A stretch of 64,000 nt of DNA from an uncultured Candidatus Bathyarchaeia archaeon (GTDB lineage: Archaea > Thermoproteota > Bathyarchaeia > 40CM-2-53-6): assembly GCA_964598845.1 (NCBI GenBank), contig CAZRDM010000002.1, positions 35,428 to 99,427 on the forward strand, in the 5' to 3' direction. Below the pieces are notes generated by a model that saw nothing but the letters and a program-made list of their open reading frames with translations, ran no database searches and was not told where the DNA came from. Positions 1 through 20,056 of this stretch are shown here, piece after piece; within the stretch, counting starts at the first letter, position 1; every line of letters starts with the position of its first letter. Both the position numbers and the translations under genes were made by a program.

Positions 1-33
1 GGCACTACGGATGCCGTACATCTTTTCGCACGA

Positions 34-1215
34 CTATTGAGACAACACTGGCGTTCCCTGGAATGTGAGCGATTGCAGCAGTGTCTCGTCTGCCTTGACG
101 ATGTTGTCAGGCAGAGGTACGTAGATCAGGTCTGGCGAGTATTTCTGGCCGTCGTGAATTGCCCACCAGAGGAATTTCGCGAGGGCTTCAGCTTTTGCCC
201 TGTCCATGTTGGGCTGCGACGACATCTCTCTGTAGATCAAGATGTACGTGTAGGTTGCTATTGGGTAGGATTGGTCTCCTGGGGCGTTCACTATGTGCAC
301 CCTTAGGTCGCTGGGGTCTGGGTTTCCTGTTGCGGCTGCCGCTGCGTTCCTGATGGTGTCGAGTGTTGGTACGATGAAGTTGCCCGCGGCGTTCTTGACC
401 GCTCCGATACCCAGATGCTGCTGGGCTGCGTAGATCACGTCCACGTAGCCGATCGCGGCTGGTGTCTGGAATACCGTTCCAGCAACGCCCGCGTTGCCTT
501 TGGCTCCCACTCCTGCGCCGAGTGTGTCAACAGGCCAGGTCACACTTGTACTGCGGCCGACGGCGGTCTTCCAGTCGGAGTTCGTTGTGTATAGAAAGTC
601 CGTAAAGGCGTATGTGGTTCCGCTCCCGTCGGATCTGTGTACTGCTGTTATGGCTGCGTCGGGTAGCTTGACGTTCGGATTGAGTGCCTGAAACGCTGGG
701 TCGTTCCATTTGGTGATCTTGCCCATGTAGATTCCCGCGAGGATGTCGCTGGTGAAGTTGAGTGTGGTGCTGTTCGATATTCCGTAGGAGTTGAGGTTGT
801 AGGTTATTGCTACCCCGCCTAGGGTTTCTGGCATTAGGACGAGGCCTGTTGCGTTTCGCAGTTGAGCGTCGGTTAGTGGTGCGTCTGAAGCTCCGAAGTC
901 CACGGTCTTGGCGGTTATCTGCTGTATTCCTCCACCGCTTCCAATCGGGTTATAATTGATTGTGACTGATGGGTTGAGGGCGTGGTACTCTACGGTCCAC
1001 TTTTGTATCAGTGGGGCTGGGAATGTTGCTCCCGCGCCGAGAATTGTTACGGGCTGCGCTGGTCGTGTTTGTGACGTTTGCCCTGTCATGCTCGTTGTCT
1101 GCTGTCCTGAAGAGTTCATTGCTTGGTATCCGAGAGCGCCTGCAATGACGGCTACTATGACGATGCCGATGATCGCCAGCGTTCTCGTGTTGCGTTTAGC
1201 TGATTTGTTCGACAT
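34..1215 (-). CDS. pstS: Phosphate ABC transporter substrate-binding protein PstS. The ORF extends to 1287, but the likely start is the Met before the signal/TM segment MSNKSAKR...IIGIVIVAVIAG.
   Basis: Translation contains the PstS-like motifs GAGATFPAPLIQKW and GASDAPLTD, preceded by an N-terminal signal anchor. It lies divergent to pstB-phoU. Confidence 0.8.
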   Translation of the reverse strand: MSNKSAKRNTRTLAIIGIVIVAVIAGALGYQAMNSSGQQTTSMTGQTSQTRPAQPVTILGAGATFPAPLIQKWTVEYHALNPSVTINYNPIGSGGGIQQITAKTVDFGASDAPLTDAQLRNATGLVLMPETLGGVAITYNLNSYGISNSTTLNFTSDILAGIYMGKITKWNDPAFQALNPNVKLPDAAITAVHRSDGSGTTYAFTDFLYTTNSDWKTAVGRSTSVTWPVDTLGAGVGAKGNAGVAGTVFQTPAAIGYVDVIYAAQQHLGIGAVKNAAGNFIVPTLDTIRNAAAAATGNPDPSDLRVHIVNAPGDQSYPIATYTYILIYREMSSQPNMDRAKAEALAKFLWWAIHDGQKYSPDLIYVPLPDNIVKADETLLQSLTFQGTPVLSQ

Positions 1216-1417
1216 ACGAATCAACGAGAACGCGCGATAACCGGATGAACTATAAGGCGAAATACCATGCGTTTTCCGGCACATCACGTGAATCTATACG
1301 ACTCACATAACTCACATTCACTAAGCCGGTTGTGCCGGTAGAAAACGGTAGAGGGCGATGCTTGCGTCGAATACTCTTACGGAGTTGACACCGAGCAGTG
1401 AAAAGGATACGATAGTC

Positions 1418-2185
1418 ATGGGCGATCTAAAATCGAAGTTAGCCTGCGAGAATCTGGGTGCAGGATTTGGCAAGAAGAAGGTTCTTGACGATATTTCACT
1501 GGGATTCAAAGAGAACGCCGTCACGGCCATCATCGGCCCGTCTGGGTGTGGGAAGTCCACGTTGATACGTTGCTTGAACAGGATGCATGAGGTGACGTCT
1601 GGCGCGTGGGTGACAGGGCGCGTGGTTCTGGACAACGAGAACATCTACGATCCCAACGTGGACCCTGTGACCGTTCGACGAAAGATCGGAATGGTGTTCC
1701 AGAAGCCCAACCCCTTCCCAACAATGTCGGTTTTCGACAACGTGGCCGCTGGACTCCGCCTGAATGGAATCCGGGATCATAGAGTGGTTTCTGAGAGAGT
1801 CGAAGAGAATCTGAGGAAGGCGTTCCTGCTTGAAGAGATTGGGGACAGAGTCGACGAGTCGGGTGCAAGTCTTTCGGGTGGTCAGCAGCAGAGGCTCTGT
1901 ATTGCGCGTGCGTTGGCGGTGGAGCCAGAGGTGGTTCTGATGGATGAACCGTGCTCGGCGCTGGACCCGGTGGCGACTGCGAAGATTGAAGAGTTGATCA
2001 TCAAGTTGAAAGAGACTTACACAGTAATCGTGGTCACTCACAACATGCAGCAGGCCGCTAGGATATCCAACCTTACCGGATTCCTGTATTTGGGCAAGTT
2101 GATTGAGTATGGGCCGACGGAGCAGATATTCTCGAACCCCCACAATGAGCTTACGGAGCGGTATATCAGCGGAAAGTTTGGTTGA
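1418..2185 (+). CDS. pstB: Phosphate import ATP-binding protein PstB. The ORF begins at 1358; the likely start is MGDLKSK.
   Basis: Walker [13 protein letters not shown] signature [14 protein letters not shown], Walker B VVLMDEP and H-loop VTHN. The size and motifs are typical of PstB. Confidence 0.9.
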
Positions 2186-2191
2186 ACGCAG

Positions 2192-2818
2192 TTGCCTCGT
2201 CTAATGGATATGGGACTAGAACGGCTATCTAACGCTATTGCGGACATGTCGAATCTCGCACTTGACTCTGTGATGAAGGCGATTCAGGCCTACACTAAAG
2301 GAGAGAAGATCACAAAGGAAGCTCTGGATCGAGCGCATCAATTGTCGATGCTTGGAACAGAGGTTGAGGAACTCGCTGTCGAACTTATAGCAAGATACCA
2401 ACCGGTAGCAACAGATCTTCGCTATATCAAATCCTGCTTGGAGATTTCATATGGCTTCTCGAGGTTTGGGAGATACGCTTACGACATCGCCCAAGTGCTG
2501 GAAATAGCTGGAGACCTTTCAGGATGCGACAAATCAGTCGTCGAAGACATGAGCGCAAGAGTAACCAAAATGATTCAAACTAGCATCAAATCATTTCAGA
2601 CAAGAGACAACAAGGCCGCTCGTAGCCTCCGCCACGAGGACGACATAGTTGACGAGACATACTTAGAGTACACGAGGAAGCTATTCCATGACACTTCTAC
2701 CCCTACTCGCTGTGCCTTGGCTTCAACACTCGTCTTGAGATATCTCGAACGAATCGCCGATCACGCCTGCCACATCGGAGATTCAGTCATATACATAACG
2801 ACTGGGACGAAGATATAG
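2192..2818 (+). CDS. phoU: Phosphate transport system regulator PhoU
   Basis: A 208-aa protein with two PhoU-like helical repeats (conserved D/E..Y, RIADHA-type ERIADHACHIGD motif). It follows pstB directly. Confidence 0.85.
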   Translation: MPRLMDMGLERLSNAIADMSNLALDSVMKAIQAYTKGEKITKEALDRAHQLSMLGTEVEELAVELIARYQPVATDLRYIKSCLEISYGFSRFGRYAYDIAQVLEIAGDLSGCDKSVVEDMSARVTKMIQTSIKSFQTRDNKAARSLRHEDDIVDETYLEYTRKLFHDTSTPTRCALASTLVLRYLERIADHACHIGDSVIYITTGTKI

Positions 2819-2836
2819 TAACAGAAAAGCAGTAAC

Positions 2837-3964
2837 ATGAAATATGCCTCTTCTATAGGCATACATGTGAATGAGTTGAAAGAAACGGAACGATCCTACG
2901 AGGATAGGTATATCCGAAGAGTCCAGCTCACCGGCAGAGGGTCGTACATTGTCTCAATCCCGAAGCAATGGGTTGAGGAAGCTGGACTGAAGAAAGGAGG
3001 CCGTATTGAGTTTAGTAGACAACAGAATCAGGGTTTGTTACTGATACCATTTGAACGATCGAAATACGAAGACGAAAGGTCGCGTTGTTCAATCTCGATC
3101 GCGCCCGATTCAGACCCAGATGCAGTTACACGGATCATAATTTCCCTCTACGTAACCGGTTTCTCAACCATTGAAGTCAATTCAAAGTCTGGCAATCTAA
3201 GCGCCGCAGTTAGAGATAGCATCAGAGACGTCGCTAGAAGCAAGCTAGTCGGGACCGAGGTCGTCACAGAATCATCAAGGAGCGCGACCCTTCAGGTGTT
3301 GCTCAGCTACCCACAATTGCTTGTTCCTGACGCGGTGAGACGAATGAGTTCCATCGAGAGCTCCATGCAACAAGACGCAATGCAGGCTCTTACTAACCGC
3401 GACCATGACTTGGCGAGACAAGTGCTGAAGATTGATGACGAAATCGACAGGTTCAGCCTGTACATAATACGGCAGTTGAAATGGGCTGTTCGGCATCCGC
3501 CCCTACTCGAAAGAATCGGGCTCAGAGTTCCAGTTGAATGTTTAGGATACCGGATTGTCACGAAAAGCGTTGAACGCTCAGCAGACCATGCCGCACGAGT
3601 AGCCCAGAACTGTTTGCTATTACAACAACCCCTAAACCCTGCATTGCTCAAGGAGAGCAATGCGCTTAGTCAGCTTTCCCAACGGATGATGGAGAACGCA
3701 TTACGGGCTCTCTTCGCCGACGATTATCAATTAGCTGAGTCAGTCCTTCTCGAAAAGGAGAAAGTGTCCTCAATAGAATCGAGATTCGTGGAACGGCTAC
3801 TCAGAGAGAAGATGCCCCCCGCCGACCTGTCAGCTTTGCGTCTAGTGTCCGAAAGCCTCAGAAGGATAGGCGAATATGCAACCGATATAGCTGAAGTCGT
3901 CCTAAACCTCACCGTGCAAAAATTCGTTGAACCACACCTCAGAACGCCACCTGTCCAAGGTTGA
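2837..3964 (+). CDS. Phosphate uptake regulator with an N-terminal AbrB/SpoVT-like DNA-binding domain fused to tandem PhoU domains
   Basis: The N-terminus VQLTGRGSYIVSIPKQWVEEAGLKKGGRIEF resembles an AbrB/MazE swapped-hairpin domain. Two PhoU-like repeats follow (RIGEYATDIAE). This architecture is known in archaeal pst loci. Confidence 0.75.
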   Translation: MKYASSIGIHVNELKETERSYEDRYIRRVQLTGRGSYIVSIPKQWVEEAGLKKGGRIEFSRQQNQGLLLIPFERSKYEDERSRCSISIAPDSDPDAVTRIIISLYVTGFSTIEVNSKSGNLSAAVRDSIRDVARSKLVGTEVVTESSRSATLQVLLSYPQLLVPDAVRRMSSIESSMQQDAMQALTNRDHDLARQVLKIDDEIDRFSLYIIRQLKWAVRHPPLLERIGLRVPVECLGYRIVTKSVERSADHAARVAQNCLLLQQPLNPALLKESNALSQLSQRMMENALRALFADDYQLAESVLLEKEKVSSIESRFVERLLREKMPPADLSALRLVSESLRRIGEYATDIAEVVLNLTVQKFVEPHLRTPPVQG

Positions 3965-4114
3965 CAAGCACCACATCCCCCTCCCCCAGCAACCGCCTGC
4001 TCCGACTCTCCATCCCCCTAGTCCTCACCGTCATGCTGGGCCTTTAATTCGCGCTCTTAAAACGCCGCAGACAAGCAACTTCCACACTCGGGTTCCACCA
4101 CCCGCATGACCTTG

Positions 4115-4140
4115 GTGGGCCCGGAGGGATACGAACCCTC
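4115..4140. repeat. 26-bp direct repeat (copy A), a partial duplicate of the T-arm and acceptor 3' end of the tRNA at 7317-7421. It includes ACCA on the minus strand.
   Basis: gtgggcccggagggatacgaaccctc matches 7316-7341 gtgggcccggagggattcgaaccctc at 25 of 26 positions. No matching tRNA 5' half is found nearby, so this is a fragment rather than a gene. Confidence 0.7.
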
Positions 4141-4323
4141 AATATTGAGGGTTCGAGAGCTTACGCATGCTGTGGGGCCGATGGGATTTTACCCCACCAT
4201 TTGGTGAAATTATTGGTCTGCTGGAGATCTGTTTCGTTTCTGGTTAAGTCCGCGGCCCTCGTACCACTAGGTGACACACACACAAAGGACGGTTCAAACT
4301 GCGATACCGGCACCATAAATTGT

Positions 4324-7104
4324 TCACAGAGTAGTCGTAGGGATTAATCGCCTTCGTAGGAGTTTCCGAGTCTCTTCTACTAGAAGCACCAGGGGCGCTA
4401 GAGAATAGAGGATAACCCAATCCATCCAAGATAATGATGCTGTTCTGAACACCTGTTGAATAATCGGGATGTACACTATTGAAGCGAGAATTCCAATCTG
4501 TGCTAGGATTCCTAGAAATAGCCACTTGTTTCTGAAGGGACTTAATCGAAATGCAGATTGTGAGCTTGTTCGCGCTGAAAAGAAGTTGCCAAGCTGCCCG
4601 GCCATGATGCCTGCCAGTACCACTGTGGTGCCTTTCGCGTAGACTGTTGGGTCTGCGATCGAAGTCTGTCCGAACGCCCATCCTCCGGTCGTCCAAGTGT
4701 GAAAAGCCCAAACTAGGCAACCAACACCTACGATGGCTCCTACGTACAGTGAGCGAAGTAAGGTAGCGGAGCCGATGAGGCGACTCCCGAGGCGGCGGGG
4801 AGGCCTTCCCATTACGTCTGGCTCAGGAGGTTCCATAATTAAGGCCAGAGAGGGAAAAACGTCCATTCCTAAGTCGATTGCGAGAACTTGCACAACTAGC
4901 AGCGGAAGTGGAACTTGAAGGAGTATGAATGCAACGAAGGCGACGAGTTCTGCCCAGTTATGAGTGAAAACGTAGTACACGAACTTTTTCAAGTTGTCGA
5001 ACATGGCCCTGCCAAACTTTACACCCTCAACCAACGAAACGAAATTATCGTCCAGTAATACCATGTCGGCTGATTCGCGGGCAACATCGGTTCCGCCGAC
5101 CCCCATAGCAATTCCGACCTCCGCCTGAATCAAAGCCGGAGCGTCATTAACCCCGTCGCCTGTCACCGCGACTGTTTCGCCTTTAGATTTCAGCGCCCTG
5201 ACTATCTGCAGTTTCTGTTCCGGAGTAGTTCTCGCGAACACGATTTCACGATTATCCAGAATTGCTGATAACTCGTCATTCGTTGCCTTGCTGAGCTCGT
5301 ATCCAGAGACGACCAAGGCCTGCTGGGACGTGACGATTCCAATCCTCTTCGCGATCGCTTCAGCCGTCAGTTCGTGGTCACCTGTCACCATAATTACTTG
5401 GATACCCGCGCCACGGGCTTCTGAAACTGCCTTCTGCATCAAGGGCCTTGGGGGATCGAATAATGCCGCCAGTCCTAGGAACGTTAGGTCGTTTTCAACT
5501 ATTTCGGAGTCAAACCTTTTGACATCATCTGGAAGTACGCGAGAAGCCATTCCAAGTACTCTGAAGCCCTTTGAAGCAAAGTCTTCAATCCGTTTCTCAA
5601 CCATTTCTCTCATGCCATCATCGAAGGACTTATATTCGTTGTCGAGAAAGATTCTGGCACATTTGGGTAGGAGTTCGCGGGATGCTCCTTTCGTGTAGGC
5701 CAAAGTCTTTCCGTCCGGCGCTCTGTGGATGCTTGTCATAAGCCGCCGCTTTGAGTCAAATGGGATCAGTCCTACCCTCGGGTTGAGTGCCAGTGCCTCG
5801 CTTACGTTGAAATCCCCTTTCCCAGCAAAAACAGCGAACGCGCCATCTGTCGGATCTCCCAGCACAGTCCACCTCGGGATCCTGTCTGAAGGCGGGCTAA
5901 GTTTCGCGTTATTGCAAAAGGCGGAAACCTCGAAGAGTGAAAGGACGTGCGGCCTCTCAGCCCTTGTGACACGCCTACCTTCAACCGTTACGAAACCGTC
6001 GGGGCTGAATCCGTCTCCTGTTACCTCGAAAATCTCGCCGTTAGCCCAGAGTTCCTTTAACATCATCTCACCACTCGTGATGGTCCCTGTCTTATCGACG
6101 CACATCACTGTCGCCGACCCAAGAGTTTCCACAGAAGACAGGCGCTTCACTACAACATTCCTCTTGGACATGGCGAGCGCGGTCAAAGCCAACGAGAGTG
6201 ACACGGTAAGTTGGAATCCTTCCGGAACCAGTGCGATCATCACCGCAATAGCGAAGAACAGGCTATCGACAATTGTCAGTTTTAGCAACAGTCCTGCCAC
6301 CGCGAAGAATACGCCACCGACGATCAGGGCAACGACGAAGTCGACCTTGGCCATGTAATCGATTTCTTTCTGTAGGCGACTAAGTGGTTCCTTGACTTCA
6401 CGTGCTAACGACACGATCTTTCCGAATTGAGTATCCTTTCCAGTCTTGAGCACGATCGCCTTGGCGACGCCCGAAACTATTGTGGTGCCAGAGAATATGA
6501 TGTTATGGAAATCTGTAATGCTCTCTATCGAAGTGCCACGGGCGATCGTGGCGAAGCGCCTCTGTGGCTCCGACTCACCTGTGAGGATAGAGTTGTCCAC
6601 GGAGGTTTCGAACGCGGTCGTCAACCTGGCGTCTGCCGGGACTCGATCCCCTTCTTCTAATGCGATCATGTCGCCGGGGACTATCTGTGCCACATTCAGC
6701 TCCTTGAATTCGCCATCACGCAGGACCTTCGCGTTCGCTGGAACAAGATTCGCTATTGCCTGTACAGCTTTTTCCGCCCTATACTCCTGAATCACGCTGA
6801 AACAGGCGTTGACCAGAACGACCCCCAGAATTGCGAAAGCCATTTGGAAGGAGGTCGGGTCGCTGTATACCCAGCCTGTCAGGAACGAAAGCAGTGAGGC
6901 AACTAGCAAAACAACATTGAACAGGTTCTTGAATTGGACGAGAAACTTCTCTGCAGGGTGCGGTCGCTTTGCGGAAGGTAGAACATTAGGACCGTATTCT
7001 TCGAGCCTTATCTTCGCCTGAGTTGATGAGAGCCCGTCGGGTGATGATCGAAGGTCATCAAAGACGCTCTGTATATCTGCGAATGCTGTTTGATCATAGG
7101 ACAA
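4324..7104 (-). CDS. Cation-transporting P-type ATPase (926 aa; type II/III-like, Ca2+/Mg2+/H+ family)
   Basis: Phosphorylation motif CVDKTGTIT, hinge motif VAVTGDGVNDAPAL, TGES-like actuator motif LTGESEP, and about 10 predicted TM helices. Confidence 0.9.
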   Translation of the reverse strand: MSYDQTAFADIQSVFDDLRSSPDGLSSTQAKIRLEEYGPNVLPSAKRPHPAEKFLVQFKNLFNVVLLVASLLSFLTGWVYSDPTSFQMAFAILGVVLVNACFSVIQEYRAEKAVQAIANLVPANAKVLRDGEFKELNVAQIVPGDMIALEEGDRVPADARLTTAFETSVDNSILTGESEPQRRFATIARGTSIESITDFHNIIFSGTTIVSGVAKAIVLKTGKDTQFGKIVSLAREVKEPLSRLQKEIDYMAKVDFVVALIVGGVFFAVAGLLLKLTIVDSLFFAIAVMIALVPEGFQLTVSLSLALTALAMSKRNVVVKRLSSVETLGSATVMCVDKTGTITSGEMMLKELWANGEIFEVTGDGFSPDGFVTVEGRRVTRAERPHVLSLFEVSAFCNNAKLSPPSDRIPRWTVLGDPTDGAFAVFAGKGDFNVSEALALNPRVGLIPFDSKRRLMTSIHRAPDGKTLAYTKGASRELLPKCARIFLDNEYKSFDDGMREMVEKRIEDFASKGFRVLGMASRVLPDDVKRFDSEIVENDLTFLGLAALFDPPRPLMQKAVSEARGAGIQVIMVTGDHELTAEAIAKRIGIVTSQQALVVSGYELSKATNDELSAILDNREIVFARTTPEQKLQIVRALKSKGETVAVTGDGVNDAPALIQAEVGIAMGVGGTDVARESADMVLLDDNFVSLVEGVKFGRAMFDNLKKFVYYVFTHNWAELVAFVAFILLQVPLPLLVVQVLAIDLGMDVFPSLALIMEPPEPDVMGRPPRRLGSRLIGSATLLRSLYVGAIVGVGCLVWAFHTWTTGGWAFGQTSIADPTVYAKGTTVVLAGIMAGQLGNFFSARTSSQSAFRLSPFRNKWLFLGILAQIGILASIVYIPIIQQVFRTASLSWMDWVILYSLAPLVLLVEETRKLLRRRLIPTTTL

Positions 7105-7254
7105 CGAAATAGACCTTCTCTGAACGGTCTCATGCCTCGAAGCCTTTAGTCCGAACCAGTCCAGAATCCTCTATAATAGGCATGCGTCGCATCCAGGAAC
7201 GAAGTGGTGGCAGTCCAAAACCAGCACGCACAGAAAATGAGGAACATCGCGGTG

Positions 7255-7275
7255 AGGGCGGAGGGATTTGAATCG
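7255..7275. repeat. Weak third copy of the tRNA 3'-end motif (gggcggagggatttgaatcgg)
   Basis: About 17 of 21 positions match the tRNA T-arm and acceptor region. It sits between the ATPase start and the tRNA. Confidence 0.3.
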
Positions 7276-7316
7276 GAAATGTTCCGGTCGACCCGGTCCT
7301 GTGTTCAAAGGCGAGA

Positions 7317-7421
7317 GTGGGCCCGGAGGGATTCGAACCCTCGACCAGCAGGTTGCTCCGTTGCAACTTATGAGCTTCGACCCATGCTTTCTGTCGCTCT
7401 AGCCTGGCTGAGCTACGGGCC
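7317..7421 (-). tRNA. tRNA gene of about 105 nt, so it very likely contains an intron. The candidate anticodon loop CTCATAA would give CAT/Met, but this is tentative.
   Basis: The minus strand reads GGGCCCG-TA-GCTC-AGCCAGGCTA-GAGC...GAGGG-TTCGAAT-CCCTC-CGGGCCC-A. Acceptor, D-arm and T-arm are canonical, and 47 nt lie between the D-arm and the variable loop where 17 are expected. Confidence 0.75.
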
Positions 7422-7961
7422 CTCTGAGCGGTCAGGAGATTGTACTTGCTTTCGCTCAAAAAGCTTCTCAGGCTGTATGGGAAGCACCAGCGTTCAAGTT
7501 GACTGGGTAGACGTTTGAGTGGCGATTTGCGGTCGACGGCTCCCCGTGCGATGAACAGTTCTGGGAGGATTCCTGCAAAACACGGACCCGATAATCATCG
7601 ACTCTTCCTGCGCCTTTTGACCTGTAACAGAAGGAGTGAGACCTCATGTCGGGTTGTGGATTCGAAGAATTGTATACCAAAATGACCGAAGCATGGAGTA
7701 GGCTTTTCAGGCCTTGGTTGTGGACAATTAAATGGTGGTCGACAACATCGGCGGTGGCGATGGCTGAAACACCGGAACTGCGGGCACGAGAATGCCCCCG
7801 GCAATTACCATCAACAAGTAGATTGCAGTCCTGTTGGCGAACTTCAAATCCATTGTTACCAGCTCTTGATTTTCTTCCCGTCAACTGACACAAGGTATTG
7901 CCTCAGCTGGGGAGCGAGGATCGCTGTAACGGCTAACTTCTGCGGGAGTTGGGGTGCCAAG

Positions 7962-8477
7962 CTATCTGAGATGTTGGTTTCCCTCTAACATTTTTTGCCA
8001 GTAGTTTGCGCGCGCTATTGATGGCAAACAGATAGTAACCTGGCTTGCAGTTTGCACGATGTTGTCCGCCTGAAGTTCAAATGTGTCGGTGACCCCATTC
8101 ACTCTCACCGTATAGACTCCTGCCTTCAGTCCGACGACATCTAATGGAATGACCTTCTCGAAGGGAGTAATCACCTGTGCACACACCGCGTCAGCCGGGC
8201 GGGTGGTACTTACTGTGATTATGAATGTGGTGGGTTCGCGCTTCGTTCTTATGTTTCCGATTTCTGTGCAACTATCTGTAAGTTCACCGTACACAACCAC
8301 ATTTACTTGCACTGGAAAGGATTCCAGAATAATGATTCGAACACTCTTGACATTCGCCAGTCCCTTGATCGTGCCTGTATCTTTTCCTTGCTCACTGGCA
8401 TACCACACAGCCATCGAAGAGGCAGCTAATACAAGAACTATTGCAGTTACTGAAACAAGAACGACTCTTCTTGGCAT
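7962..8477 (-). CDS. Hypothetical secreted or membrane-anchored protein (ORF to 8561; likely start MPRRVVLVSV)
   Basis: An N-terminal hydrophobic signal anchor (VVLVSVTAIVLVLAASSMAVW) is followed by a beta-rich domain. No family was recognised. Confidence 0.45.
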   Translation of the reverse strand: MPRRVVLVSVTAIVLVLAASSMAVWYASEQGKDTGTIKGLANVKSVRIIILESFPVQVNVVVYGELTDSCTEIGNIRTKREPTTFIITVSTTRPADAVCAQVITPFEKVIPLDVVGLKAGVYTVRVNGVTDTFELQADNIVQTASQVTICLPSIARANYWQKMLEGNQHLR

Positions 8478-9024
8478 ACCGTATCGTACAATTGCTAAGC
8501 TCCATATCATAAGATTCTTGCCTATGGAACATCTGTTCCAAACCGTACGACAAGCGATCATGCTAAGCTTGGTATGGCCTAGTCAGTGCTGTGATGGTTC
8601 TCAGAGGAGAGTTGCCGTGATAAGATGAACGCTTCCGGATCGTGGCCTTGCATAGAGCAAAGTCGCGTGTTGTTTGGCGGCCGTGCTGCTATCGGCATCG
8701 GTTGGTTATCTGATTGCGTTGCATGTGCCAGCTGGGAAGCCTCAGCATAAGTAACCCTTTCATGACCTGAAAGCCGAACTTGCTGTAAGAGTTGACGTTC
8801 CCGCGTTTGTCGGTTTCCGAATAGTCAATCTCCGCATGCAACAGTCACTACTCGTCCTAGATTGTGAGTTTGCGTCGCTAAAACGACGCCACGCTGCAAC
8901 TCAGAGCCTGTTCTCTGCAAATCTGCCGATTCTCTTAGATCTCAGCGGTGTTGCGACACGCTGGTTATGGATTACAGACCAACGCCTTGTGTTGACACCA
9001 ATGGCTAGAAACTAATGTGTGGGT

Positions 9025-9187
9025 GGTGCTCCGGGCGGGATTTTCAGCGCTCATGCGCTTTTGAACCCGCGTCGCTGGCTCTCCCCTTACTCGAGAGGCC
9101 AACATACTCTCGGTGGCAGACGCCTTGACCGGGCTATATTCGGTAGCGGCGAACGCTTCTACCGGAGCCCCAGAAGCCCGGAGCAAT
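9025..9187. ncRNA. Candidate structured non-coding RNA of unknown family in a ~700-nt ORF-free region
   Basis: Nested perfect helices: GCTCCGGGC (9028-9036) pairs with GCCCGGAGC (9176-9184). Other stems are GCGGG/CCCGC, GCGC-TCAT-GCGC, CGAGAG/CTCTCG and CGGTAG/CTACCG. No ORF covers the region and the strand is undetermined. Confidence 0.35.
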
Positions 9188-9272
9188 CCGAGTAAGCAAG
9201 TTACACGATATTTTAAGGGTGTGCAAAGTCGCGCTGACGCGTAGGCTGGAAAAAATCGAGAGGAAATGTGGC

Positions 9273-10901
9273 TTAGTATTCCGGCATTTCTCCGCCTCTC
9301 GGTGGTGGAGTCGGAGGTGGCTTCGCTGCTGCGATCACGTCGTCAATACGCAGTATCATCGATGCGGCTTCGGCTGCGGACTTGATGGCCTGTTCCTTGA
9401 CTCTTGTTGGATCAATCACGCCTTGTTTCTTCATGTCCCTAACGCCGCCCTTGAAGACATCAACGCCGTATGCGACGCCTTCCTTTTTCTCGTGTGCCGA
9501 GCGAAGGGCCACTGTGATGTCAATCGGATCGAGACCAGCGTTCTCCGCAAGCGTCTTTGGAATCATTTCGAGGGTGTCAGCGAAAGCCTCGATTGCGAGT
9601 TGCTCTCGCCCACCTACCTTACTGGCGTATTCCTTCACCCGCTTTGCGAGCTCACCCTCGATTGCGCCTCCGCCGACGACAACCTTGGGCTTGTGCACCA
9701 CATCGGCCACAACCGAAAGAGCGTCCTTCATCGCTCTTTCAGCCTCATCGACTAGGCGCTCGATACCTGCTCGGATTAGGATACTGACCGACCTTGGATC
9801 TTGGCATCCCTCTATGAAGACCATCTTGTCGTCGCCGATCTTTCTTTCCTCCGCAAGGCCCGCTTTGCCAAGATCTTTGGACGTCAAGTCATCTAAGTTC
9901 GTCACGATCCTTCCACCTGCAGCCCGTCCAAGCTTCTCCATGTCCGATTTCTTAATTCTCCGTACAGCAAGTATTCCTTCCTTTGCCAAGTAGTGCTGAG
10001 TGGTATCGTCGATGCCTTTCTGGCATAGTACGACATTAGCGCCAGAGGCCTTGATCTTATCGACCATCTCCTTCATCATGCGAGCCTCTTCGTCCAAGAA
10101 GGCTTTCATTTGGGATGGATCGTTGATTCGGATTTCCGCGGACATCTCCGTCTTCTCGATTTCCAGCGCGCAGTCAAGTAAAGCGATCTTCGGGTTCTTG
10201 ACCATTTTCGGCATGCCTGGATGAACAACTTCCTTGTCGATGATTATGCCCTTGATCAAATGCGTGTCGAGCAGGCTGCCGCCTTCCTTCTTGACGAGTT
10301 GAATGTTGTCGATGTCTGCATACCAAGAATCTCCACGTTTCTCCATGATCTGTTGGACGGCTTCGACGCCGATATCGGCGAAGTGCTCACGAGCCGCGCC
10401 CAGACCTTTGCTGTGCATTGCGGTGACAGCAACTTTCTTCAGCGTAGCCTCGTCTTCCAGCTTAACCGGCTCGGACATGGAATTCAAAGTTTCGACCGCT
10501 TTGTCTGCAGCTTTCTTGTAACCGGCGACGATCGTCGTCGGGTGAACGTTATCATCTAGAAGATTCTCAGCTCGTTTCAGCAGTTCGCCTGCAAGAATTA
10601 CCGCGGTCGTTGTTCCGTCACCGACTTCATCATCCTGCGTCTTGGCGACTTCGACCATCATCTTGGCTGCGGGATTCTGGACATCGATCTCGTCTAGAAC
10701 TGTGGCGCCGTCGTTAGTTACAGTCACATCGCCTAGAGTATCGACGAGCATCTTGTCCATTCCCCGTGGACCAAGAGTACTCTTTACAACTTCGGAAACA
10801 ACGATCGCCGCGGTCATGTTACTTCGCTGAGCATCACGACCTCGGTTCCGTGTTGAGCCTTCCTTTAGAATGAGTACCGGTTGACCGGCTAGATAGGCCA
10901 T
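9273..10901 (-). CDS. ths: Thermosome subunit (group II chaperonin)
   Basis: A 542-aa protein with the GDGTTT ATP-binding motif, NDGATVL, VVGGGA and the characteristic C-terminal GGEMPEY tail. Confidence 0.95.
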
Positions 10902-10940
10902 TTTTGTTACCTCGGGTAACCCAGCATTAAAAATCCCGGT

Positions 10941-10948
10941 TATAAGTA
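10941..10948 (-). promoter_or_regulatory. Putative TATA box (TACTTATA on the minus strand) about 40 nt upstream of the thermosome ATG, with a GAGGT Shine-Dalgarno-like element
   Basis: An AT-rich TTATAA element lies in the GC-rich intergenic region at the spacing expected for an archaeal promoter plus a short 5'UTR. Confidence 0.35.
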
Positions 10949-11206
10949 TTTTTCTTTGCTAGTTTCCCTTCGCTTAGACGTACAGATTACGCAACTGCGC
11001 GGACGTTGGGGAGCACAGACCATGGAAGGGGATCAACCTTCTTCAGTGAGCGGTTACCCCATGGGTCATGGCACCATCAGAATGGCCTAGACATTGCTTC
11101 GCCAAGTTCCGAGAGAAGTTATTATAGCAGACTCGCCATTCGAGCGCGAATTGTCTTCTCGATTTCTCGAGAAAGTCTTGGGGAAAAGCAGTTGCCAGTG
11201 AATCTG

Positions 11207-11893
11207 ATGGTTCAAAGGACTAGCGTCCGCAATTCAACCTTGATAACTGGTTTTCATGGAGTGGGAGAAACAGGTTACATCTCAGTCTCATATCTCGTTC
11301 ACGCCCTGAACGCGAAGAGGATCGGGTTTGTAGACGTTGCTCATCCTCCGCCGTTCATAGCAACATCGGAATCCGGCCTAGTTACGCCATTCGAAGTCTA
11401 CAAGTCTGGTAGGATTGTGTTCGTCAAACTGGAGTTCTCTCCCCACAGGAGCGAGGAGGCTGAATTTGCTAAGACTCTTGCACAATGGACGATGGAGAAC
11501 AGATTCAGGGATGCAGTGTTGATCGGTGGACTGGACGGTAGCTTGCAGGCAGGAACGGACAGCATCAGAGTTGTCCCAACGCATACATACCCGCTCAAGA
11601 CGAGGAAAATGAATCACCCTACGCTTGAGGCCGGCCTCTTCGTTTACGGGCCCTTGGCAGTTATGTTGGGTGAGTTCGAGAAGCAGAACTTCCCGGCCGT
11701 CGCAGTATTGCCATACGCCTCGGCCAACCATGCTGACCCTAAGGCAGCCGCTACTGCAATCAGAGCTATTTCGAAAGCCTACCGCCTTATGGTGGACGTG
11801 AAAGAACTGGAGTATGATGCAAAGGATATCGAGCAAGAGGTTGAGAAACGGCTCCAGCAGACCGCGCGTTCATTACGTGGAATGTACGGATAA
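11207..11893 (+). CDS. PAC2-family protein (proteasome assembly chaperone-like, COG1938/DUF75). The ORF begins at 11006; the likely start is MVQRTS.
   Basis: The N-terminal ITGFHGVGETGYIS is a PAC2 hallmark GxxGxG-like motif. The size is about 228 aa. Confidence 0.65.
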   Translation: MVQRTSVRNSTLITGFHGVGETGYISVSYLVHALNAKRIGFVDVAHPPPFIATSESGLVTPFEVYKSGRIVFVKLEFSPHRSEEAEFAKTLAQWTMENRFRDAVLIGGLDGSLQAGTDSIRVVPTHTYPLKTRKMNHPTLEAGLFVYGPLAVMLGEFEKQNFPAVAVLPYASANHADPKAAATAIRAISKAYRLMVDVKELEYDAKDIEQEVEKRLQQTARSLRGMYG

Positions 11894-11953
11894 CTCGACA
11901 ATCATACATACGGATTGCTGAGCCATTCAGACAGACGAATTAGCTGATTACGA

Positions 11954-13213
11954 ATGCATCTACGATTTCTAGGGGCTTGTCAAGAAGTTGGCAGATCCGC
12001 GGTCGCCGTCAAGAGCGACCAGAGTCAAATCCTCATGGATTACGGTGTCTTGATAAACCACGAAGTGGGCTTCCCAGTTCATATATCACCAAAGGATCTT
12101 GATGCAGTCGTCCTCACACACGCGCATTTAGATCATAGCGGACTAACACCGCTCTTCTACCTGCACTCTACGAAGCTACCAGTGTATGGGGTAGAACCCA
12201 CCTTCAAACTGACCAGCGTTCTCGTTAGGGACATGATCAAGTTAAGTGGCTACTACCTCCCCTACGAGTACATAGACTTGGAGAGCATGATGAACCGAAC
12301 TGTCCCAGTTGAATATCATTCACCCTTGAAAGTTGGGGACTTTGACATTACTCTGGTCAATGCCGGTCACATACCTGGAAGTGCACAGATAATCGCGGAA
12401 AACAATGGAAAACGCGTCCTGTACACGGGAGACTACAATCTAATTCCAACCCATCTCGTCCAAGGTGCGGAGAGAGCCTATAGGCACTTGGATGCGATAA
12501 TCATTGAGAGCACCTACGCCAGTGAAGACCACCCTGAGAGAATAGAGGCGGAACGTAACTTCGTCCTAGCATGCAAAGAAATAATTGAAAACGGCGGGAC
12601 GGTACTCGTACCAGCCTTTGGAGTGGGTCGATCCCAGGAAATCATATGCATGCTCTCTGATCATAACTTCTCCTATCCTGTCTTCGTGGACGGCATGGCC
12701 TTGGATGCGATTAGAATGCTCGAGGAACATCCAAACTCTCTGAGGGATGCGGAACGCTTCAGGAAAGCCATGAGGTTGGCGGAGCACATCAATAATTGGA
12801 AAAGCCGACGCCACGCGGCGCAGACAGCTGGAGTAATAGTCTCCCCAGCAGGGATGCTGAAGGGAGGGGCCTCTGTGTTCTACATGGAAAATATTTCTCG
12901 CGATGAACGAAACGGCATCTTTCTTGTAAGCTACCAAGTCCAAGGCTCGCCGGGTAGAATACTGCTAGACGAGGGCCGCTTCATAATCAGAGGCAGACCT
13001 GGGAAAGTCAAAGCGCGCGTTGAGAAATTTGATTTCTCATCGCATGGAGGAAGGATGCAGCTTCAGGAGACTCTGAAGGAACTGGACAACAAAACTCGTG
13101 TCTTCGTAGTTCATGGCGATGAAGCAAATTGTAGGCATCTCGCGGACTGGGCAAATAGAGAACTTGGACTGCAAGCCACAGTACCTGAGCCAGGCGACAA
13201 CTACGATCTCTGA
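11954..13213 (+). CDS. Beta-CASP family metallo-beta-lactamase RNase (aCPSF2/RNase J-like)
   Basis: The THAHLDHSG motif (HxHxDH) is followed by beta-CASP motifs. The protein is 419 aa. Confidence 0.8.
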   Translation: MHLRFLGACQEVGRSAVAVKSDQSQILMDYGVLINHEVGFPVHISPKDLDAVVLTHAHLDHSGLTPLFYLHSTKLPVYGVEPTFKLTSVLVRDMIKLSGYYLPYEYIDLESMMNRTVPVEYHSPLKVGDFDITLVNAGHIPGSAQIIAENNGKRVLYTGDYNLIPTHLVQGAERAYRHLDAIIIESTYASEDHPERIEAERNFVLACKEIIENGGTVLVPAFGVGRSQEIICMLSDHNFSYPVFVDGMALDAIRMLEEHPNSLRDAERFRKAMRLAEHINNWKSRRHAAQTAGVIVSPAGMLKGGASVFYMENISRDERNGIFLVSYQVQGSPGRILLDEGRFIIRGRPGKVKARVEKFDFSSHGGRMQLQETLKELDNKTRVFVVHGDEANCRHLADWANRELGLQATVPEPGDNYDL

Positions 13214-13256
13214 AACCCTCGGCGTAATCCAGTTAGGAGATGCGTCCGATTACTCA

Positions 13257-13742
13257 TTGGAAGATTTGAAACCTCTCCTATCCGAGAAGCTTCCTTGGTT
13301 CAAGGTCCGAACAATCGACTATGTCCCGGGCACGCGCGAGGCCTATGATTCTCTACGTGACCAATTTCATTCAACTCGCATCTTGGCCCTTCTTGAGAGT
13401 GAAATCCAATCTCTGAAGGTGGACAGATTATTGGGTGTCGCGTCATTCGACCTGTATGTTCCGGGCATGAACTTTGTTTTCGGAGAAGCCAGACTTCTGG
13501 GGAGAGTGAGCGTGATTTCGACGTACAGGCTGAAACCACTACTCTCGGACGACTACATCCTATTCCAAGAAAGAGTTGTTAAAGAGGCTGTCCACGAAAT
13601 AGGTCACATGCTGGGCATGAGACATTGCACTGACCACTCGTGCGTCATGTACTTCTCGGAGAGTATAATTGACACTGATAGGAAGAGTTCCGAGTTCTGC
13701 CGCAATTGCCGTTCTGAATTGAAGAGGCTGAGAGTTGAGTAA
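13257..13742 (+). CDS. amzA: Archaemetzincin (zinc metalloprotease, AmzA-like). The start is uncertain (TTG candidates at 13257 or 13266), and the ORF frame overlaps the 3' end of the upstream gene.
   Basis: The HEIGHMLGMRHC zinc-binding motif (HExxHxxGxxH) is followed by Cys-rich CTDHSCVMY...CRNC, which is typical of archaemetzincins. Confidence 0.75.
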   Translation: MEDLKPLLSEKLPWFKVRTIDYVPGTREAYDSLRDQFHSTRILALLESEIQSLKVDRLLGVASFDLYVPGMNFVFGEARLLGRVSVISTYRLKPLLSDDYILFQERVVKEAVHEIGHMLGMRHCTDHSCVMYFSESIIDTDRKSSEFCRNCRSELKRLRVE

Positions 13743-14574
13743 GGAATTTAGAGCAAAGCCTGAACATCTCCTCCCTGAAATCCTGGCGATAGCGCTAGCT
13801 GGGGCTCTTACATACTCCTTGAGAAGTACTCCAGTAGAGCCGCTCACGATCTTTCCTGAAACAACGGGAGGAGTGACCCTTAACGCAAGCATTTTTGTTG
13901 TCCTCATGGCTGCGACGGGAACGATGATGTACCTGTTTGTGAAATTCGGTTTGAAACGAATAGTCAGATACCTGATTAACTTCGCCCTGTTCGCTCTGCT
14001 TTTCTTCCTGTTCACCTGGTACGGTACGCTCTACGCCAATTATATTCCAACTCTTTTCGACTCATCTATGTGGCTACTTGTCAGCCTGTTCGCGTCGATT
14101 GGCTTGGGTTTGGCTATATACAGATCGAAAGGGATCCCGCACCTAGCTGCGATAATTGTTGTAGGAGGAATGACCGGAACCTTCCTGGGCGTCTCGATTC
14201 CTACGCTTACTGCGGTAGCGCTTCTCCTCGCGCTAGCTGGCTACGATCTTTTCGCAGTCTACAAAGGTCCCATAGGAAAGATGGCGAAATCCACTGATAT
14301 AGAAGAGTTCACCGGCGCCGTCTTCACCTACGGGGACTTGACCATGGGTATGGGAGATATGGTGTTCTACTCGATGCTCGCAAGCAATTCGATGAAGAAC
14401 TTCGGTCTCTTTCCATATGTTGCAGCAGGAATCGGACTCGTAGTCGGCGCATACCTAGGCTTCAAAATGCTTGAGGGTCGAGACATGTTTCCAGGATTAC
14501 CATTCGCAATCATACTAGGACTGATTTTCATGTATGTGACGTTCCAGTTCTTACCGCCCCTCAAACCCACATGA
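13735..14574 (+). CDS. Presenilin/signal-peptide-peptidase homolog (GxGD intramembrane aspartyl protease)
   Basis: Multi-TM protein with the YD motif (LAGYDLFAVY), the GxGD motif (LTMGMGDMVFY) and a PAL-like motif near the C-terminus (FPGLPFAIILG). Confidence 0.7.
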   Translation: MSKEFRAKPEHLLPEILAIALAGALTYSLRSTPVEPLTIFPETTGGVTLNASIFVVLMAATGTMMYLFVKFGLKRIVRYLINFALFALLFFLFTWYGTLYANYIPTLFDSSMWLLVSLFASIGLGLAIYRSKGIPHLAAIIVVGGMTGTFLGVSIPTLTAVALLLALAGYDLFAVYKGPIGKMAKSTDIEEFTGAVFTYGDLTMGMGDMVFYSMLASNSMKNFGLFPYVAAGIGLVVGAYLGFKMLEGRDMFPGLPFAIILGLIFMYVTFQFLPPLKPT

Positions 14575-14705
14575 AGAAACGCGTAGACGTACTCGCGAAA
14601 CTGGCGGAAAGCCTCGTACGTCACTCGCGCATTTGACATCAATCCATTCCGGAAAGCATTAAGAAACGCATTCCATTGCATCTGACGTAACGGAAGTGTC
14701 CCAGC

Positions 14706-16043
14706 GTGCCCGCTCAACGAGCGATAATGCTCGCTCTACTCGTTGTTCTACCGAGCATATATGTGGGCTCGCTGGCAGGAACCCAAGTTGCAGCTCAAGC
14801 TACTGCTAATGCTGTGATGAACGAAGTTGAGATGGACCCTCCAGGCCCTGATATTGCAAAGCAGTGGATCGAACTCTATAACCCCACAAACCAAGGTGTA
14901 GATGTCTCTGGATGGAAACTCAGATCCGCAAGTGGAGCTGTAACAACTATGCAGTCTCGAATATCGGTTATTCCTAGTCTCGGATACTTGGTGTTAACTC
15001 TCCCGGGACGAAGCGTCATGAAGACAGGAGATACGGTAACCCTTAGTGATAGGAAGGGCACTGTAATCGATTCGACCCCGAATATCCGTGATGTGTCAGA
15101 CAACAATCTCACTTGGCAGAGGTTTCCCAATGGCATTGACACTGGAGCTCTGAGTGATTGGAGATTCTCACCCTCAACTAAGGGCGCCACAAACGGTAAA
15201 CTTGCTGCCACGTTGACCTTGGCCTCGCCAGTCTCATCTGCAACTTACGGAGACGCGATAACCCTGTCAGGAAAACTGAACTTGACAATGAGCACGAGTA
15301 TCTATCTTCTTATGAGGTTTGGGTCCTCATCAGTAAACCAAACACTTAGCACTACCAATGATGGAACATTCTCTTATGTCTGGAGTCCAAGCTCGGCGGG
15401 AGGTTATACCGCAACTGCCTTCTGGAAAGGAGATTCACTACACGACCCTGCAACATCGTCCACTGTCTCGATTCTCGTCAATAAACTCCAAGCCAAATTG
15501 ACGTTGTCTCCAACATCGATGAACTTGACAGAGCCTGCGCGCGCAACATTCACGGGAGCCATTTCACCGACGATCCCGCAGGCTCTGATCACCATCACAA
15601 TCATCACCCCAAATCAGACTGTGGAGTCACGCGCTGTGCAAACATCCACGAATGGGAGCTTCAGATTCACCTTCGTCCCATCTTTCCCCGGCAATTGGAC
15701 CTTGACTGCTTCATGGGAAGGAGATGCGAACCACTATGGAGATCAAAGCGCAGCATCTATCGTGAGGCTCTCACCCGTCACCGAATTCGACGCCTCACTC
15801 CTCATACTAATCACGATTCCAGTAACCATCGCTGTTGTGGCATTTGTGTACAGATATGCGGGAACTCCCCTTGGTCTGCCTCTAGGCCAGATTCTAAAGA
15901 GACGTGCTCCTCCTCATTTGAGACCACTGCGAGTTCTGAATGGCGCGATATGCCCGATGTGCTTTAGACCAATGATGTATGAACCGAAAGGCGCTGATTG
16001 GCACTGCGAGCACTGTGGAGTCTTTTATGAATCCCAAATATGA
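14706..16043 (+). CDS. Lamin-tail-domain (LTD) surface protein with Ig-like repeats, a C-terminal TM helix and a terminal zinc ribbon
   Basis: After a signal peptide comes the LTD core WIELYNPTNQGVDVSGWKL...GYLVLT. A beta-rich repeat region and the TM segment LLILITIPVTIAVVAFVY follow. The C-terminus carries CPMC...CEHC. Confidence 0.65.
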   Translation: MPAQRAIMLALLVVLPSIYVGSLAGTQVAAQATANAVMNEVEMDPPGPDIAKQWIELYNPTNQGVDVSGWKLRSASGAVTTMQSRISVIPSLGYLVLTLPGRSVMKTGDTVTLSDRKGTVIDSTPNIRDVSDNNLTWQRFPNGIDTGALSDWRFSPSTKGATNGKLAATLTLASPVSSATYGDAITLSGKLNLTMSTSIYLLMRFGSSSVNQTLSTTNDGTFSYVWSPSSAGGYTATAFWKGDSLHDPATSSTVSILVNKLQAKLTLSPTSMNLTEPARATFTGAISPTIPQALITITIITPNQTVESRAVQTSTNGSFRFTFVPSFPGNWTLTASWEGDANHYGDQSAASIVRLSPVTEFDASLLILITIPVTIAVVAFVYRYAGTPLGLPLGQILKRRAPPHLRPLRVLNGAICPMCFRPMMYEPKGADWHCEHCGVFYESQI

Positions 16044-16402
16044 GGAACCCAAATCGAGCGAACTATTACGATCGCACGTTCGCGAAATCGGGTATGCGCT
16101 GACTGCCTTGCTTGTTCCCTTTGGAGTGCGCCTAATACCGGAAGCATTCTCCTATCCATATCCCATCGGCTTCGATACAATCGGCTACTACATTCCGATC
16201 ATGCAATCCCGAATCGCGCTACTGACAAGCCCATCTAATTTCTTCGAGGGCACATGATGAGAAGTCCTTGCGGTTCCATTGAAATTCATAAACAGCTCGC
16301 AGTGGACATCGCGTCGCCGAAGAGTTGTTAAGTTTGTTCATACAAGTTTGACCCGCGGCATGACGTGGATTGACCTGCACTGAGGTTCCTCACGCCGGAT
16401 GA

Positions 16403-16416
16403 GGAGATGCATCTCC
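16403..16416. promoter_or_regulatory. Perfect 14-bp palindrome GGAGATGCATCTCC about 60 nt upstream of hpt
   Basis: An exact inverted repeat lies in the intergenic region. A second GAGGttCCTC palindrome is adjacent. Confidence 0.3.
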
Positions 16417-16475
16417 GCTGACCGCAACAACACTTATAGTGGGAACAGGGTGTTGCCGTAACGAACGGTGCTCTG

Positions 16476-17072
16476 ATGTCCGATTCGCGGAAATACGTTG
16501 CCCCTAGATGGGACAAGATTTACGAGATGCTCATTGACCTCGCTCTCAGGATAAGAGAGTCAGGTTTCAAGGCGGATCTAATTGTAGGTGTCTCGAGGGG
16601 GGGATGGGCACCGGGACGCGTACTTTCAGACCTATTGGAGAACCCACACACAGTCAACATCAAGATTGAGTTCTACACCGGCATTGGAAAGACTGCACGT
16701 ACTCCAATAATCACTCAACCGATAAGCGAAGAGATTTCCGGGAAGAAAGTCCTAGTCGTTGACGATGTAGCTGATACCGGGGAAAGCCTAAGGGTCGCCC
16801 TGGATCACGTACTCTCCAAAGGAGCAGAGAGCGTAAGAACGGTAACCATATACTACAAGCCTCACAGCACGTTCAAGCCGGATTTCTTTGCAGATTCCAC
16901 AAGTGATTGGATAATCTTCCCTTGGGAGAGGTTGGAAGCAACAAAGCTTTTGATCGAGGAAGCACGTTCTGGCGGTCGAAATTTAGACTCTGTCCGCCAG
17001 ATCTTGAAAGGATGCGGTTTTGACGACAAGACCATCGAATCACTACTTCAGCTCGCCATTCCAAGGTCATAG
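16476..17072 (+). CDS. hpt: Hypoxanthine/guanine phosphoribosyltransferase
   Basis: PRPP-binding motif VLVVDDVADTGESL. The size is about 198 aa. Confidence 0.85.
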   Translation: MSDSRKYVAPRWDKIYEMLIDLALRIRESGFKADLIVGVSRGGWAPGRVLSDLLENPHTVNIKIEFYTGIGKTARTPIITQPISEEISGKKVLVVDDVADTGESLRVALDHVLSKGAESVRTVTIYYKPHSTFKPDFFADSTSDWIIFPWERLEATKLLIEEARSGGRNLDSVRQILKGCGFDDKTIESLLQLAIPRS

Positions 17073-17075
17073 GGC

Positions 17076-17642: not shown

Positions 17643-17647
17643 CAGAC

Positions 17648-18175: not shown

Positions 18176-18222
18176 TGGAGAGACACCAAGAGCGTCGAGA
18201 TTGGACTGCGGAGCATTAATAG

Positions 18223-18846: not shown

Positions 18847-18975
18847 ACGAACTCACCAAACTCTTTGATGCTACCAAAGCTGCAAACTGCTTAAAGATTA
18901 GTCCGCAGACTCGGTGGAATAACTAGAGACTTCGGACTCAGTTGGGAATCAGTGCGAACCTGGGAGAGCTTGAGA

Positions 18976-19926: not shown

Positions 19927-20056
19927 AACATTTCTGGTGCGCTTCTTACTGCAAGGGAGCCTGAGGGCTATCACAATCGGCGGAATTGCGGCCAAAAGTT
20001 TTAAAGTACCCGCCTAGGGGGGGTTAGCTCGGCTTTTGGCACAGGAGCCTTTTCTC

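Follow-up and report, generated by a model that had tools for sequence, protein, structure and literature searches.

A probable integration scar at the 3' end of an intron-containing tRNA-Met(CAU) gene: an integrase-less ATPase islet in a Bathyarchaeia genome

Integrated mobile genetic elements of archaea are bounded by direct repeats that result from recombination with the 3'-distal part of a tRNA gene, intron-containing tRNA genes included, and re-use of the same site can build arrays of them (PMC6563490). Archaeal cryptic integrated elements carry an integrase by definition (PMC6563490). Cis-mobilizable elements (CIMEs) have been defined, and tandem accretion at tRNA genes described, in work on Firmicutes (PMC5704250). 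In the islands of Prochlorococcus, older elements are displaced inward by newly arriving ones, partial tRNAs occur throughout the island, and the cargo includes functions in phosphate and metal homeostasis (bioRxiv 10.1101/2020.12.28.424599). Here we analyse a 64-kb stretch of DNA from an uncultured Candidatus Bathyarchaeia archaeon (the window; 64,000 nucleotides of contig CAZRDM010000002.1), in which a single P-type ATPase gene lies between a tRNA-Met(CAU) gene and a displaced copy of its 3' end. The interval is probably an integration scar at the tRNA-Met 3' end, forming an integrase-less islet within a small tandem island.

Like CIMEs, the ATPase unit has attL- and attR-like repeats derived from a tRNA 3' end, is devoid of integration and transfer genes, and lies in tandem with another att-bounded segment. 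It differs from them in its host, an archaeon, in its single cargo gene and in that no integrase-bearing partner was found; descent from an integrative and conjugative element or an integrative and mobilizable element, and mobilisation in cis, belong to the definition of CIMEs and would be conjectural for the window unit. Thaumarchaeal cryptic integrated elements and other integrated elements of archaea also occupy the 3'-distal part of a tRNA gene, which may contain introns, are flanked by direct repeats and can be as short as 2.6 kb. However, carrying an integrase is part of their definition, and the window unit has none, and the host of the latter belongs to the class Bathyarchaeia.

The tRNA gene and its displaced 3' end

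The sole tRNA gene within the window is a tRNA(CAU), elongator Met or Ile2, with two 15-nt introns, located on the reverse strand at 7318-7422 by Rfam, ARAGORN in intron mode and alignment of orthologues. The Rfam model RF00005 scores 47.6 bits over these positions, which passes the gathering threshold; the match includes a large insertion in the anticodon arm. Run on the window in intron mode, ARAGORN calls tRNA-Met(CAT); in default mode it misses the same gene and reports zero tRNAs. The original prediction, made from the sequence alone, had recognised a real tRNA but placed it one base off, at 7317-7421. Aligned with the orthologues of two relatives (loci L068/L069 and L070), the exons are identical and the genes diverge only in two blocks of unrelated sequence, which is why we read it as a two-intron tRNA with a 7-nt micro-exon (...GACAG/intron 1/GCUCAUA/intron 2/ACCUGC...). 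On the reverse strand, exon 1 (7422-7391) is followed by intron 1 (15 nt, 7390-7376, after tRNA position 30), the micro-exon GCUCAUA carrying the CAU anticodon (7375-7369), intron 2 (15 nt, 7368-7354, after position 37) and exon 3 (7353-7318). Conserved exons with introns that vary between species are the pattern of intron-containing archaeal tRNAs, and a strain single-nucleotide polymorphism at 7366 falls inside intron 2. Inspection by eye suggests that GUCGAA, conserved at the end of intron 1, could pair with an exonic CGAC to give a bulge-helix-bulge-like motif.

The 3' end of this gene is present twice. The 26-mer GTGGGCCCGGAGGGATTCGAACCCTC is exact at 7317-7342 and recurs at 4115-4140 with one mismatch (A for T at 4131), in the same orientation and downstream of the tRNA, as had been proposed. 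No other site with three or fewer mismatches exists in the window, and 100 dinucleotide shuffles gave no match. The repeat extends from the 5' strand of the T-stem through the discriminator A73, plus C74 (tRNA positions 49-73 and C74), and the mismatch turns the conserved A58 of the T-loop into U in the displaced copy. The proximal, attL-like core (7317-7342, reverse strand, 26 bp) is followed by the foreign trailer TCTCG. The displaced, attR-like copy, hereafter copy A, lies at 4113-4140 on the same strand; its core (25/26, 4115-4140) runs on into C75-A76 at 4114-4113. Both cores bound an inserted segment of 3176 bp (4141-7316, reverse strand; 3202 bp including one core). This is the attL/attR direct-repeat arrangement of a tRNA-targeting element, with the tRNA itself, at 47.6 bits, left intact.

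Past the 26 bp, similarity between the two sites is not significant on either side, the observed scores being equalled by 64 of 500 and 301 of 500 shuffles. Because similarity ends at 26 bp, copy A is a sharp-edged fragment and not a decayed copy of the gene, in agreement with the original prediction. The same evidence bears on the idea that copy A is no att site but either a decayed tRNA duplicate (pseudogene) or the 3' half of a tRNA that is split or trans-spliced. Archaea do have split and multi-intron tRNAs, and the present gene has two introns. However, besides the abrupt end of the similarity and the mutated A58, the Rfam tRNA model gives no match over copy A even at E<=10, and no complementary 5' acceptor strand or leader was seen, so that such an origin appears very improbable.

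The 3' trailers give the repeat pair a polarity. The tRNA end reads GGGCCCA-CCA-TG in L068, GGGCCCA-CCA-TC in L070 and GGGCCCA-CCA-AGG at copy A, whereas the functional tRNA of the window reads GGGCCCA-CTC-TCG. Since CCA trails both copy A and the tRNA of the relatives while CTCTCG trails the working tRNA, copy A and its flank are taken to be the older, former 3' end. Likewise, as both relatives have an encoded CCA where the working tRNA has CTCTCG, the DNA from 7316 downwards is taken to be foreign. A foreign trailer combined with a displaced CCA copy would be the product expected when a circle with a replacement 3' end integrates. Archaea add CCA enzymatically, and the tRNA should therefore stay functional.

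We infer that a circular DNA carrying a promoter, the ATPase gene and a 26-bp tRNA-Met(CAU) 3' end (T-arm to C74) would have recombined with the chromosomal tRNA gene. The incoming copy of the 3' end would have completed the working tRNA, with foreign DNA trailing it from then on, and the original 3' end with its encoded CCA would have been pushed 3.2 kb downstream to become copy A. Most likely the recombinase was a tyrosine integrase with specificity for the tRNA, which may have acted in trans or been deleted later, and the ATPase unit is now an integrase-less, att-flanked, CIME-like islet.

Weaker tRNA-end-like sequences accompany the two strong copies. An ungapped scan of the window for the 26-mer at >=18/26 returned five sites, compared to a mean of 0.34 (maximum 3) in 200 shuffles. 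One degenerate fragment, at 4172-4197 on the reverse strand, matches at 19/26 (GUGGG-GUAAAAU-CCCAU-CGGCCCC-A-C). Another, at 7252-7277 on the reverse strand, matches at 18/26 (...GAUUCAAAUCCCUCCGCCCUCACC) and is located within the insert, 39 bp away from the proximal core; it had been noticed before as a weak third copy at 7255-7275, but the fourth copy at 4172-4197 had been overlooked. Both fragments are <65 bp from the strong copies, in the same orientation, and resemble a T-arm and acceptor 3' strand ending in A-C, with acceptor sequences that differ from tRNA-Met. Because the second T-stem pair is changed on both sides (A-U to U-A), the fragment at 4172-4197 is assigned to a different or older tRNA end. 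The fifth site, at 6206 on the opposite strand within the ATPase open reading frame (ORF), is probably a chance match. Copy A also contributes to a perfect 24-bp palindrome at 4132-4155, with CGAACCCTCAAT and ATTGAGGGTTCG as its two halves: its outer arm coincides with the T-stem/loop part of copy A, and its inner arm consists of insert DNA. By our own calculation about 0.004 such palindromes are expected per 64 kb. It would reach 26 bp with a T at 4131, as in the tRNA, and no strain has T there. The palindrome may serve as a recombinase site or as a terminator of the convergent ATPase and phoU-AbrB genes; it may also be a by-product of repair.

Independent metagenome assemblies break at the same places. 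Contigs from SRR5215466 cover 1-4150, 4126-7343 and 7325-10023, those from SRR5215464 cover 1291-7346 and 7325-9843, and those from JGI 3300010324 cover 1-4254 and 4132-20817, overlapping by exactly 123 bp (4132-4254); in JGI 3300031876 both junctions are read through. Three independent assemblies thus break within or beside copy A and the palindrome (4126, 4132, 4150 and 4254), and two at the tRNA 3' end (7325, 7343 and 7346). Such contig ends point to branching of the assembly graph, that is, to alternative contexts in the populations. Breaks on the tRNA side would be expected from tRNA sequence common to community members, and the breaks at copy A imply a second context for the 35-123 bp that surround the palindrome. 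Neither a circular form nor an empty allele, when tried as the cause of the breaks, reproduces all contig ends. It is conceivable, if unlikely, that the 3.2-kb unit is still mobile, as an integrase-less single-gene cassette moved in trans by a tRNA-Met-specific recombinase from Bathyarchaeia genomes or viruses, with the breaks as alternative junctions. The attP region of the corresponding circle would then comprise 421 bp with three directly repeated tRNA-end-like sites and the perfect palindrome.

The ATPase cargo and the relatives of the locus

The only cargo gene encodes an intact type II P-type cation ATPase of 926 aa (4324-7104, reverse strand), identified by Pfam, NCBIfam and motifs; as the original prediction had stated, it is the only convincing ORF of the interval. 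The N-terminal, E1-E2, P-domain and C-terminal Pfam domains are all found, together with the motifs TGES at residue 175, DKTGT at 337 and GDGxND at 649. The best NCBIfam matches are to IIC/IIA families, each below its equivalog cut-off. The pump presumably serves cation homeostasis. Its promoter and 5' untranslated region (7105-7193, reverse strand), with a TATA-like CCTATTATAGAGG near 7160, are conserved at ATPase loci elsewhere. The arms of the insert, 183 and 212 bp long, contain no gene fragments and no ORFs except shadows of the ATPase gene.

Near-identical ATPases occur in unrelated contexts. The closest homologues share 91.5%, 88% and 79% amino acid identity and are found in three unrelated neighbourhoods, with nucleotide identities of 86% and 83%. 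Homology to these other loci is limited to window positions 4322-7193, corresponding to the ORF and about 90 bp with the TATA-like box, the rest of the contigs being unshared. For comparison, non-self identity of the thermosome tops out at 88% in the database, and ten core proteins of L068 are 61-86% identical to those of the window. Across contexts, conservation of the ATPase thus exceeds that of the core genome, and this speaks for a recent horizontal movement of the gene.

Relatives of the locus, retrieved with PhoU-AbrB and thermosome anchors, are labelled Candidatus Bathyarchaeia, and the neighbouring genes in the window are archaeal housekeeping genes (thermosome, PAC2, beta-CASP, ABCE1, SMC/ScpAB, TBP and Top6A). 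The window belongs to ENA contig ERZ781360 NODE_10 (127.9 kb), and near-identical contigs are present in several other samples. The nearest relatives are about 75% identical in protein, with thermosomes in L068/L069 and L070 that are 86% identical to that of the window; no closer relative was found in the databases searched. L068-L070 share the gene order of the window as far as the thermosome, and a conserved non-coding block and the tRNA come next; after these, unrelated genes follow, and neither the ATPase nor pst genes are present after the orthologous tRNA. The pst-phoU block occurs at about 55 Bathyarchaeia loci with 65-80% identity, and at none of them does this ATPase, the tRNA or the thermosome come after it. 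The sharp repeat edges, the CCA polarity, the lack of the ATPase in relatives and the ATPase copies in unrelated contexts all support the integration first proposed for this interval.

These observations also allow a different history to be weighed, in which the tRNA fragments are scars of older, unrelated integrations and the ATPase arrived otherwise, by rearrangement or homologous replacement, and lies between the scars by chance. Fragments of several different tRNA ends in the region do indicate a multi-event history of the site; moreover, homology between ATPase loci covers the promoter and ORF and excludes about 300 bp beside the cores, and no integrase is present. However, copy A matches the working tRNA end at 25/26 and is thus the best preserved and most recent scar, only the ATPase lies between it and the tRNA, and the foreign trailer starts exactly at the core edge. 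We consider an arrival by chance between older scars rather unlikely.

A tandem array at the tRNA and the search for a recombinase

The ATPase unit is followed by a second bracketed segment, which starts at 1-4112 in the window, continues beyond its edge and ends after 7649 bp. Within the window it encodes pstS (34-1287, reverse strand), pstB (1358-2185, forward), phoU (2192-2818, forward) and phoU-AbrB (2837-3964, forward); past the edge, it holds pstC, pstA, a low-molecular-weight phosphatase and a 218-aa ORF, and no integrase. The segment ends at a third tRNA-Met 3' end, copy C (CCCTCCGGGCCCAC then CA), which lies 7649 bp from copy A at 20640-20665 of locus L001 (window-equivalent -3560). 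At L001 20462-20487 (window-equivalent -3382), 178 bp before copy C, TTCGATTCCCGCCCGGGGCTCC is a fragment of a different tRNA end, and both sit in an 873-bp intergenic region. Just past this region, the DNA encodes GHGTHVA on the opposite strand (by eye) and looks like the remnant of a subtilisin-like peptidase.

The resulting layout (tRNA, ATPase unit, copy A, pst unit, copy C) is that of a tRNA-anchored tandem island, with several partial tRNA copies in direct orientation separating successive units. In the proposed order of events, the ATPase unit, next to the tRNA, would be the youngest one; the 7.65-kb pst-phoU segment lies between copy A and the shorter copy C, and fragments of other tRNA ends are scattered at the unit borders. 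The original prediction of a decayed element or minimal cargo islet is retained as far as an integrase-less islet is concerned, but the interval makes up no more than the tRNA-proximal unit of a longer tandem array.

Similar remnants are found outside this genome. In the relative L068, TCCCTCCGGGCCCACC lies 1577 bp after its own tRNA-Met and brackets a 184-aa ORF and a class I methyltransferase; this islet of L068/L069 (12186-13788) measures 1.6 kb and has no integrase. An isolated CCCTCCGGGCCCAC plus CA occurs at L048 18891-18904 (reverse strand), 7.8 kb from a phoU-AbrB paralogue and in the same relative orientation as in the window. As copies or fragments recur in the window, L001, L068 and L048, the tRNA-Met site is considered a recurrent hotspot. 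In 871 kb of fetched loci, the 14-nt core CCCTCCGGGCCCAC is restricted to tRNA-Met genes and tRNA-end fragments. The array resembles the tycheposon islands of Prochlorococcus in its successive integrations at one tRNA, its scattered partial tRNAs and its cargo for nutrient and ion uptake, and some genes of those islands are likewise no longer part of a functional element. It differs in that the window unit has neither an integrase nor a replication module, in its archaeal host and in the intron-containing tRNA-Met(CAU).

The tRNA-Met(CAU) end is also used by viruses. Among viral contigs, the 26-mer has one occurrence, exact and followed by CCA, 150 bp from a tyrosine integrase on contig L071 of IMG/VR (L071 7687-9058), which is phage-like; a 16-mer mostly matches bacterial or phage tRNA-Met genes. 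The identical 26 nt and CCA near a tyrosine integrase illustrate the principle of a phage or prophage att site at this tRNA end, although L071 is unrelated, has a GC content of 0.66 and shares no genes with the window. The viral contigs L087 (about 5940-5984) and L095 (about 470-512) carry 3' portions of tRNA-Met(CAU) that start at the anticodon loop. Since several viral contigs hold such fragments, the tRNA-Met(CAU) end appears to be a common att site across unrelated elements. No related intact element that could have served as a partner was found among the contigs searched.

No recombinase gene accounts for the integration locally. PF00589 or any other recombinase domain is absent from the scanned window ORFs and the called L001 genes, and the Int(N) and Int(C) fragments that an SSV-type partitioning integrase would leave were not found beside the att sites. 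Insertion of a transposon or casposon, with the 26 bp as target-site duplication, is the least credible origin and extremely improbable. Known target-site duplications are far shorter than 26 bp. Terminal inverted repeats were not found at the insert ends, and no Cas1 (casposase), transposase or PolB gene is present. In its favour, tRNA 3' ends are possible targets of casposons, which can also insert in tandem (PMC6563490). A reading as an integron cassette (attC) was rejected too, since the repeat is a tRNA end and neither an array nor intI is present.

Integration could have taken place without any integrase, in a Campbell-type insertion of a circle with a tRNA-end fragment by homologous recombination over a short homology. 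Some archaea recombine on very short homology, and such an event would leave the 26 bp directly repeated, as observed, and could do without an integrase, in line with none being found. However, the tRNA end was used repeatedly, in the window as well as in L068 and L048, the palindrome and the core-like fragments at the arms resemble recombinase sites, and tyrosine integrases typically target tRNA 3' ends (PMC6563490). An insertion of this type is accordingly judged improbable.

Several points weigh against site-specific integration of the ATPase unit. As the original prediction had noted, and as domain scans now bear out, the 3.2-kb unit holds the ATPase only, with no integrase, excisionase or replication gene. 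Integrase, transposase and replication domains are equally absent from 38 further window ORFs (a few large ORFs at 14-58 kb being unscanned) and from the called genes of the 5.7 kb past the left edge of the window. The CCA argument is weak by itself, with a 1-in-16 chance per site. An empty-site allele, searched for with PhoU-AbrB (in genomes and metagenomes), the thermosome, homologues of p182 (an ORF on the 5' side of the tRNA, see below) and the exact proteins of both flanks as anchors, is absent among 12 and 7 same-species contigs and all relatives: no same-species contig is without the insert, and the flank downstream of tRNA-Met in the relatives differs from that of the window; a strict empty site, the comparison suggested with the original prediction, was not seen in any strain or relative. 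The hosts of the 88-91% ATPase copies are without taxonomic label in a cluster look-up. Around the ATPase copies in other contexts, no tRNAs or flanking repeats were found, and the ATPase is therefore not generally an att-bounded cassette; in viral contigs, no ATPase relatives were found. Finally, the GC content, GC content at third codon positions (GC3) and codon usage of the ATPase are host-like, and the comparison of GC and codon usage suggested earlier, here extended to skew, gave no foreign signal. As the homologue contigs have a GC of 0.49-0.50, a host-like composition is expected if the donors were compositionally similar.

Neighbouring features and significance

Three further features of the window were observed. 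The non-coding block in the thermosome-tRNA interval, about 165 nt long (9020-9185, reverse strand; about 11715-11880 in L068 and 11820-11990 in L070), is nearly invariant in three genomes, although protein identity among them is only 61-86%. A TATA-like TTAAAATA precedes it by about 25 nt. With a 10-bp closing helix (UGCUCCGGGC...GCCCGGAGCA), 48 predicted pairs and no Rfam match even at E<=1, it is a candidate for an unannotated structured RNA of Bathyarchaeia. About 1.55 kb between this non-coding block and the tRNA promoter (about 7445-9010) are absent in L068 and L070 and represent another accessory insertion, this one 5' of the tRNA. It encodes p182 (7962-8510), chagasin-like and listed as 'inhibitor of cysteine peptidase' (PF27154) in precomputed annotation, whose nearest homologues are 54-64% identical and scattered over archaea and bacteria, and whose GC3 of 0.459 is the lowest of the 46 window genes compared; p141 (7468-7893) gave no matches. 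Further away, MoeA is encoded in two ORFs about 170 bp apart (33991-35210, reverse strand), with MoeA_N at 34683-35210 and MoCF and MoeA_C at 33991-34515, which may reflect a frameshift, a pseudogene or a split gene.

Taken together, the ATPase unit, probably an ordinary integration scar, is of a known kind but newly seen in Bathyarchaeia, and it represents no new mechanism. Bathyarchaeia are abundant uncultured archaea of sediments, and their mobile elements are barely described. At this tRNA-Met hotspot, flexible genes gather as they do in bacterial and thaumarchaeal islands; a cation pump is the case in point, and a phosphate-uptake cluster possibly a second one. Such islets can persist without any recombinase. 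The locus also provides a marker for mining islands in metagenome-assembled genomes of Bathyarchaeia, in the form of the 14-nt core CCCTCCGGGCCCAC downstream of tRNA-Met(CAU).

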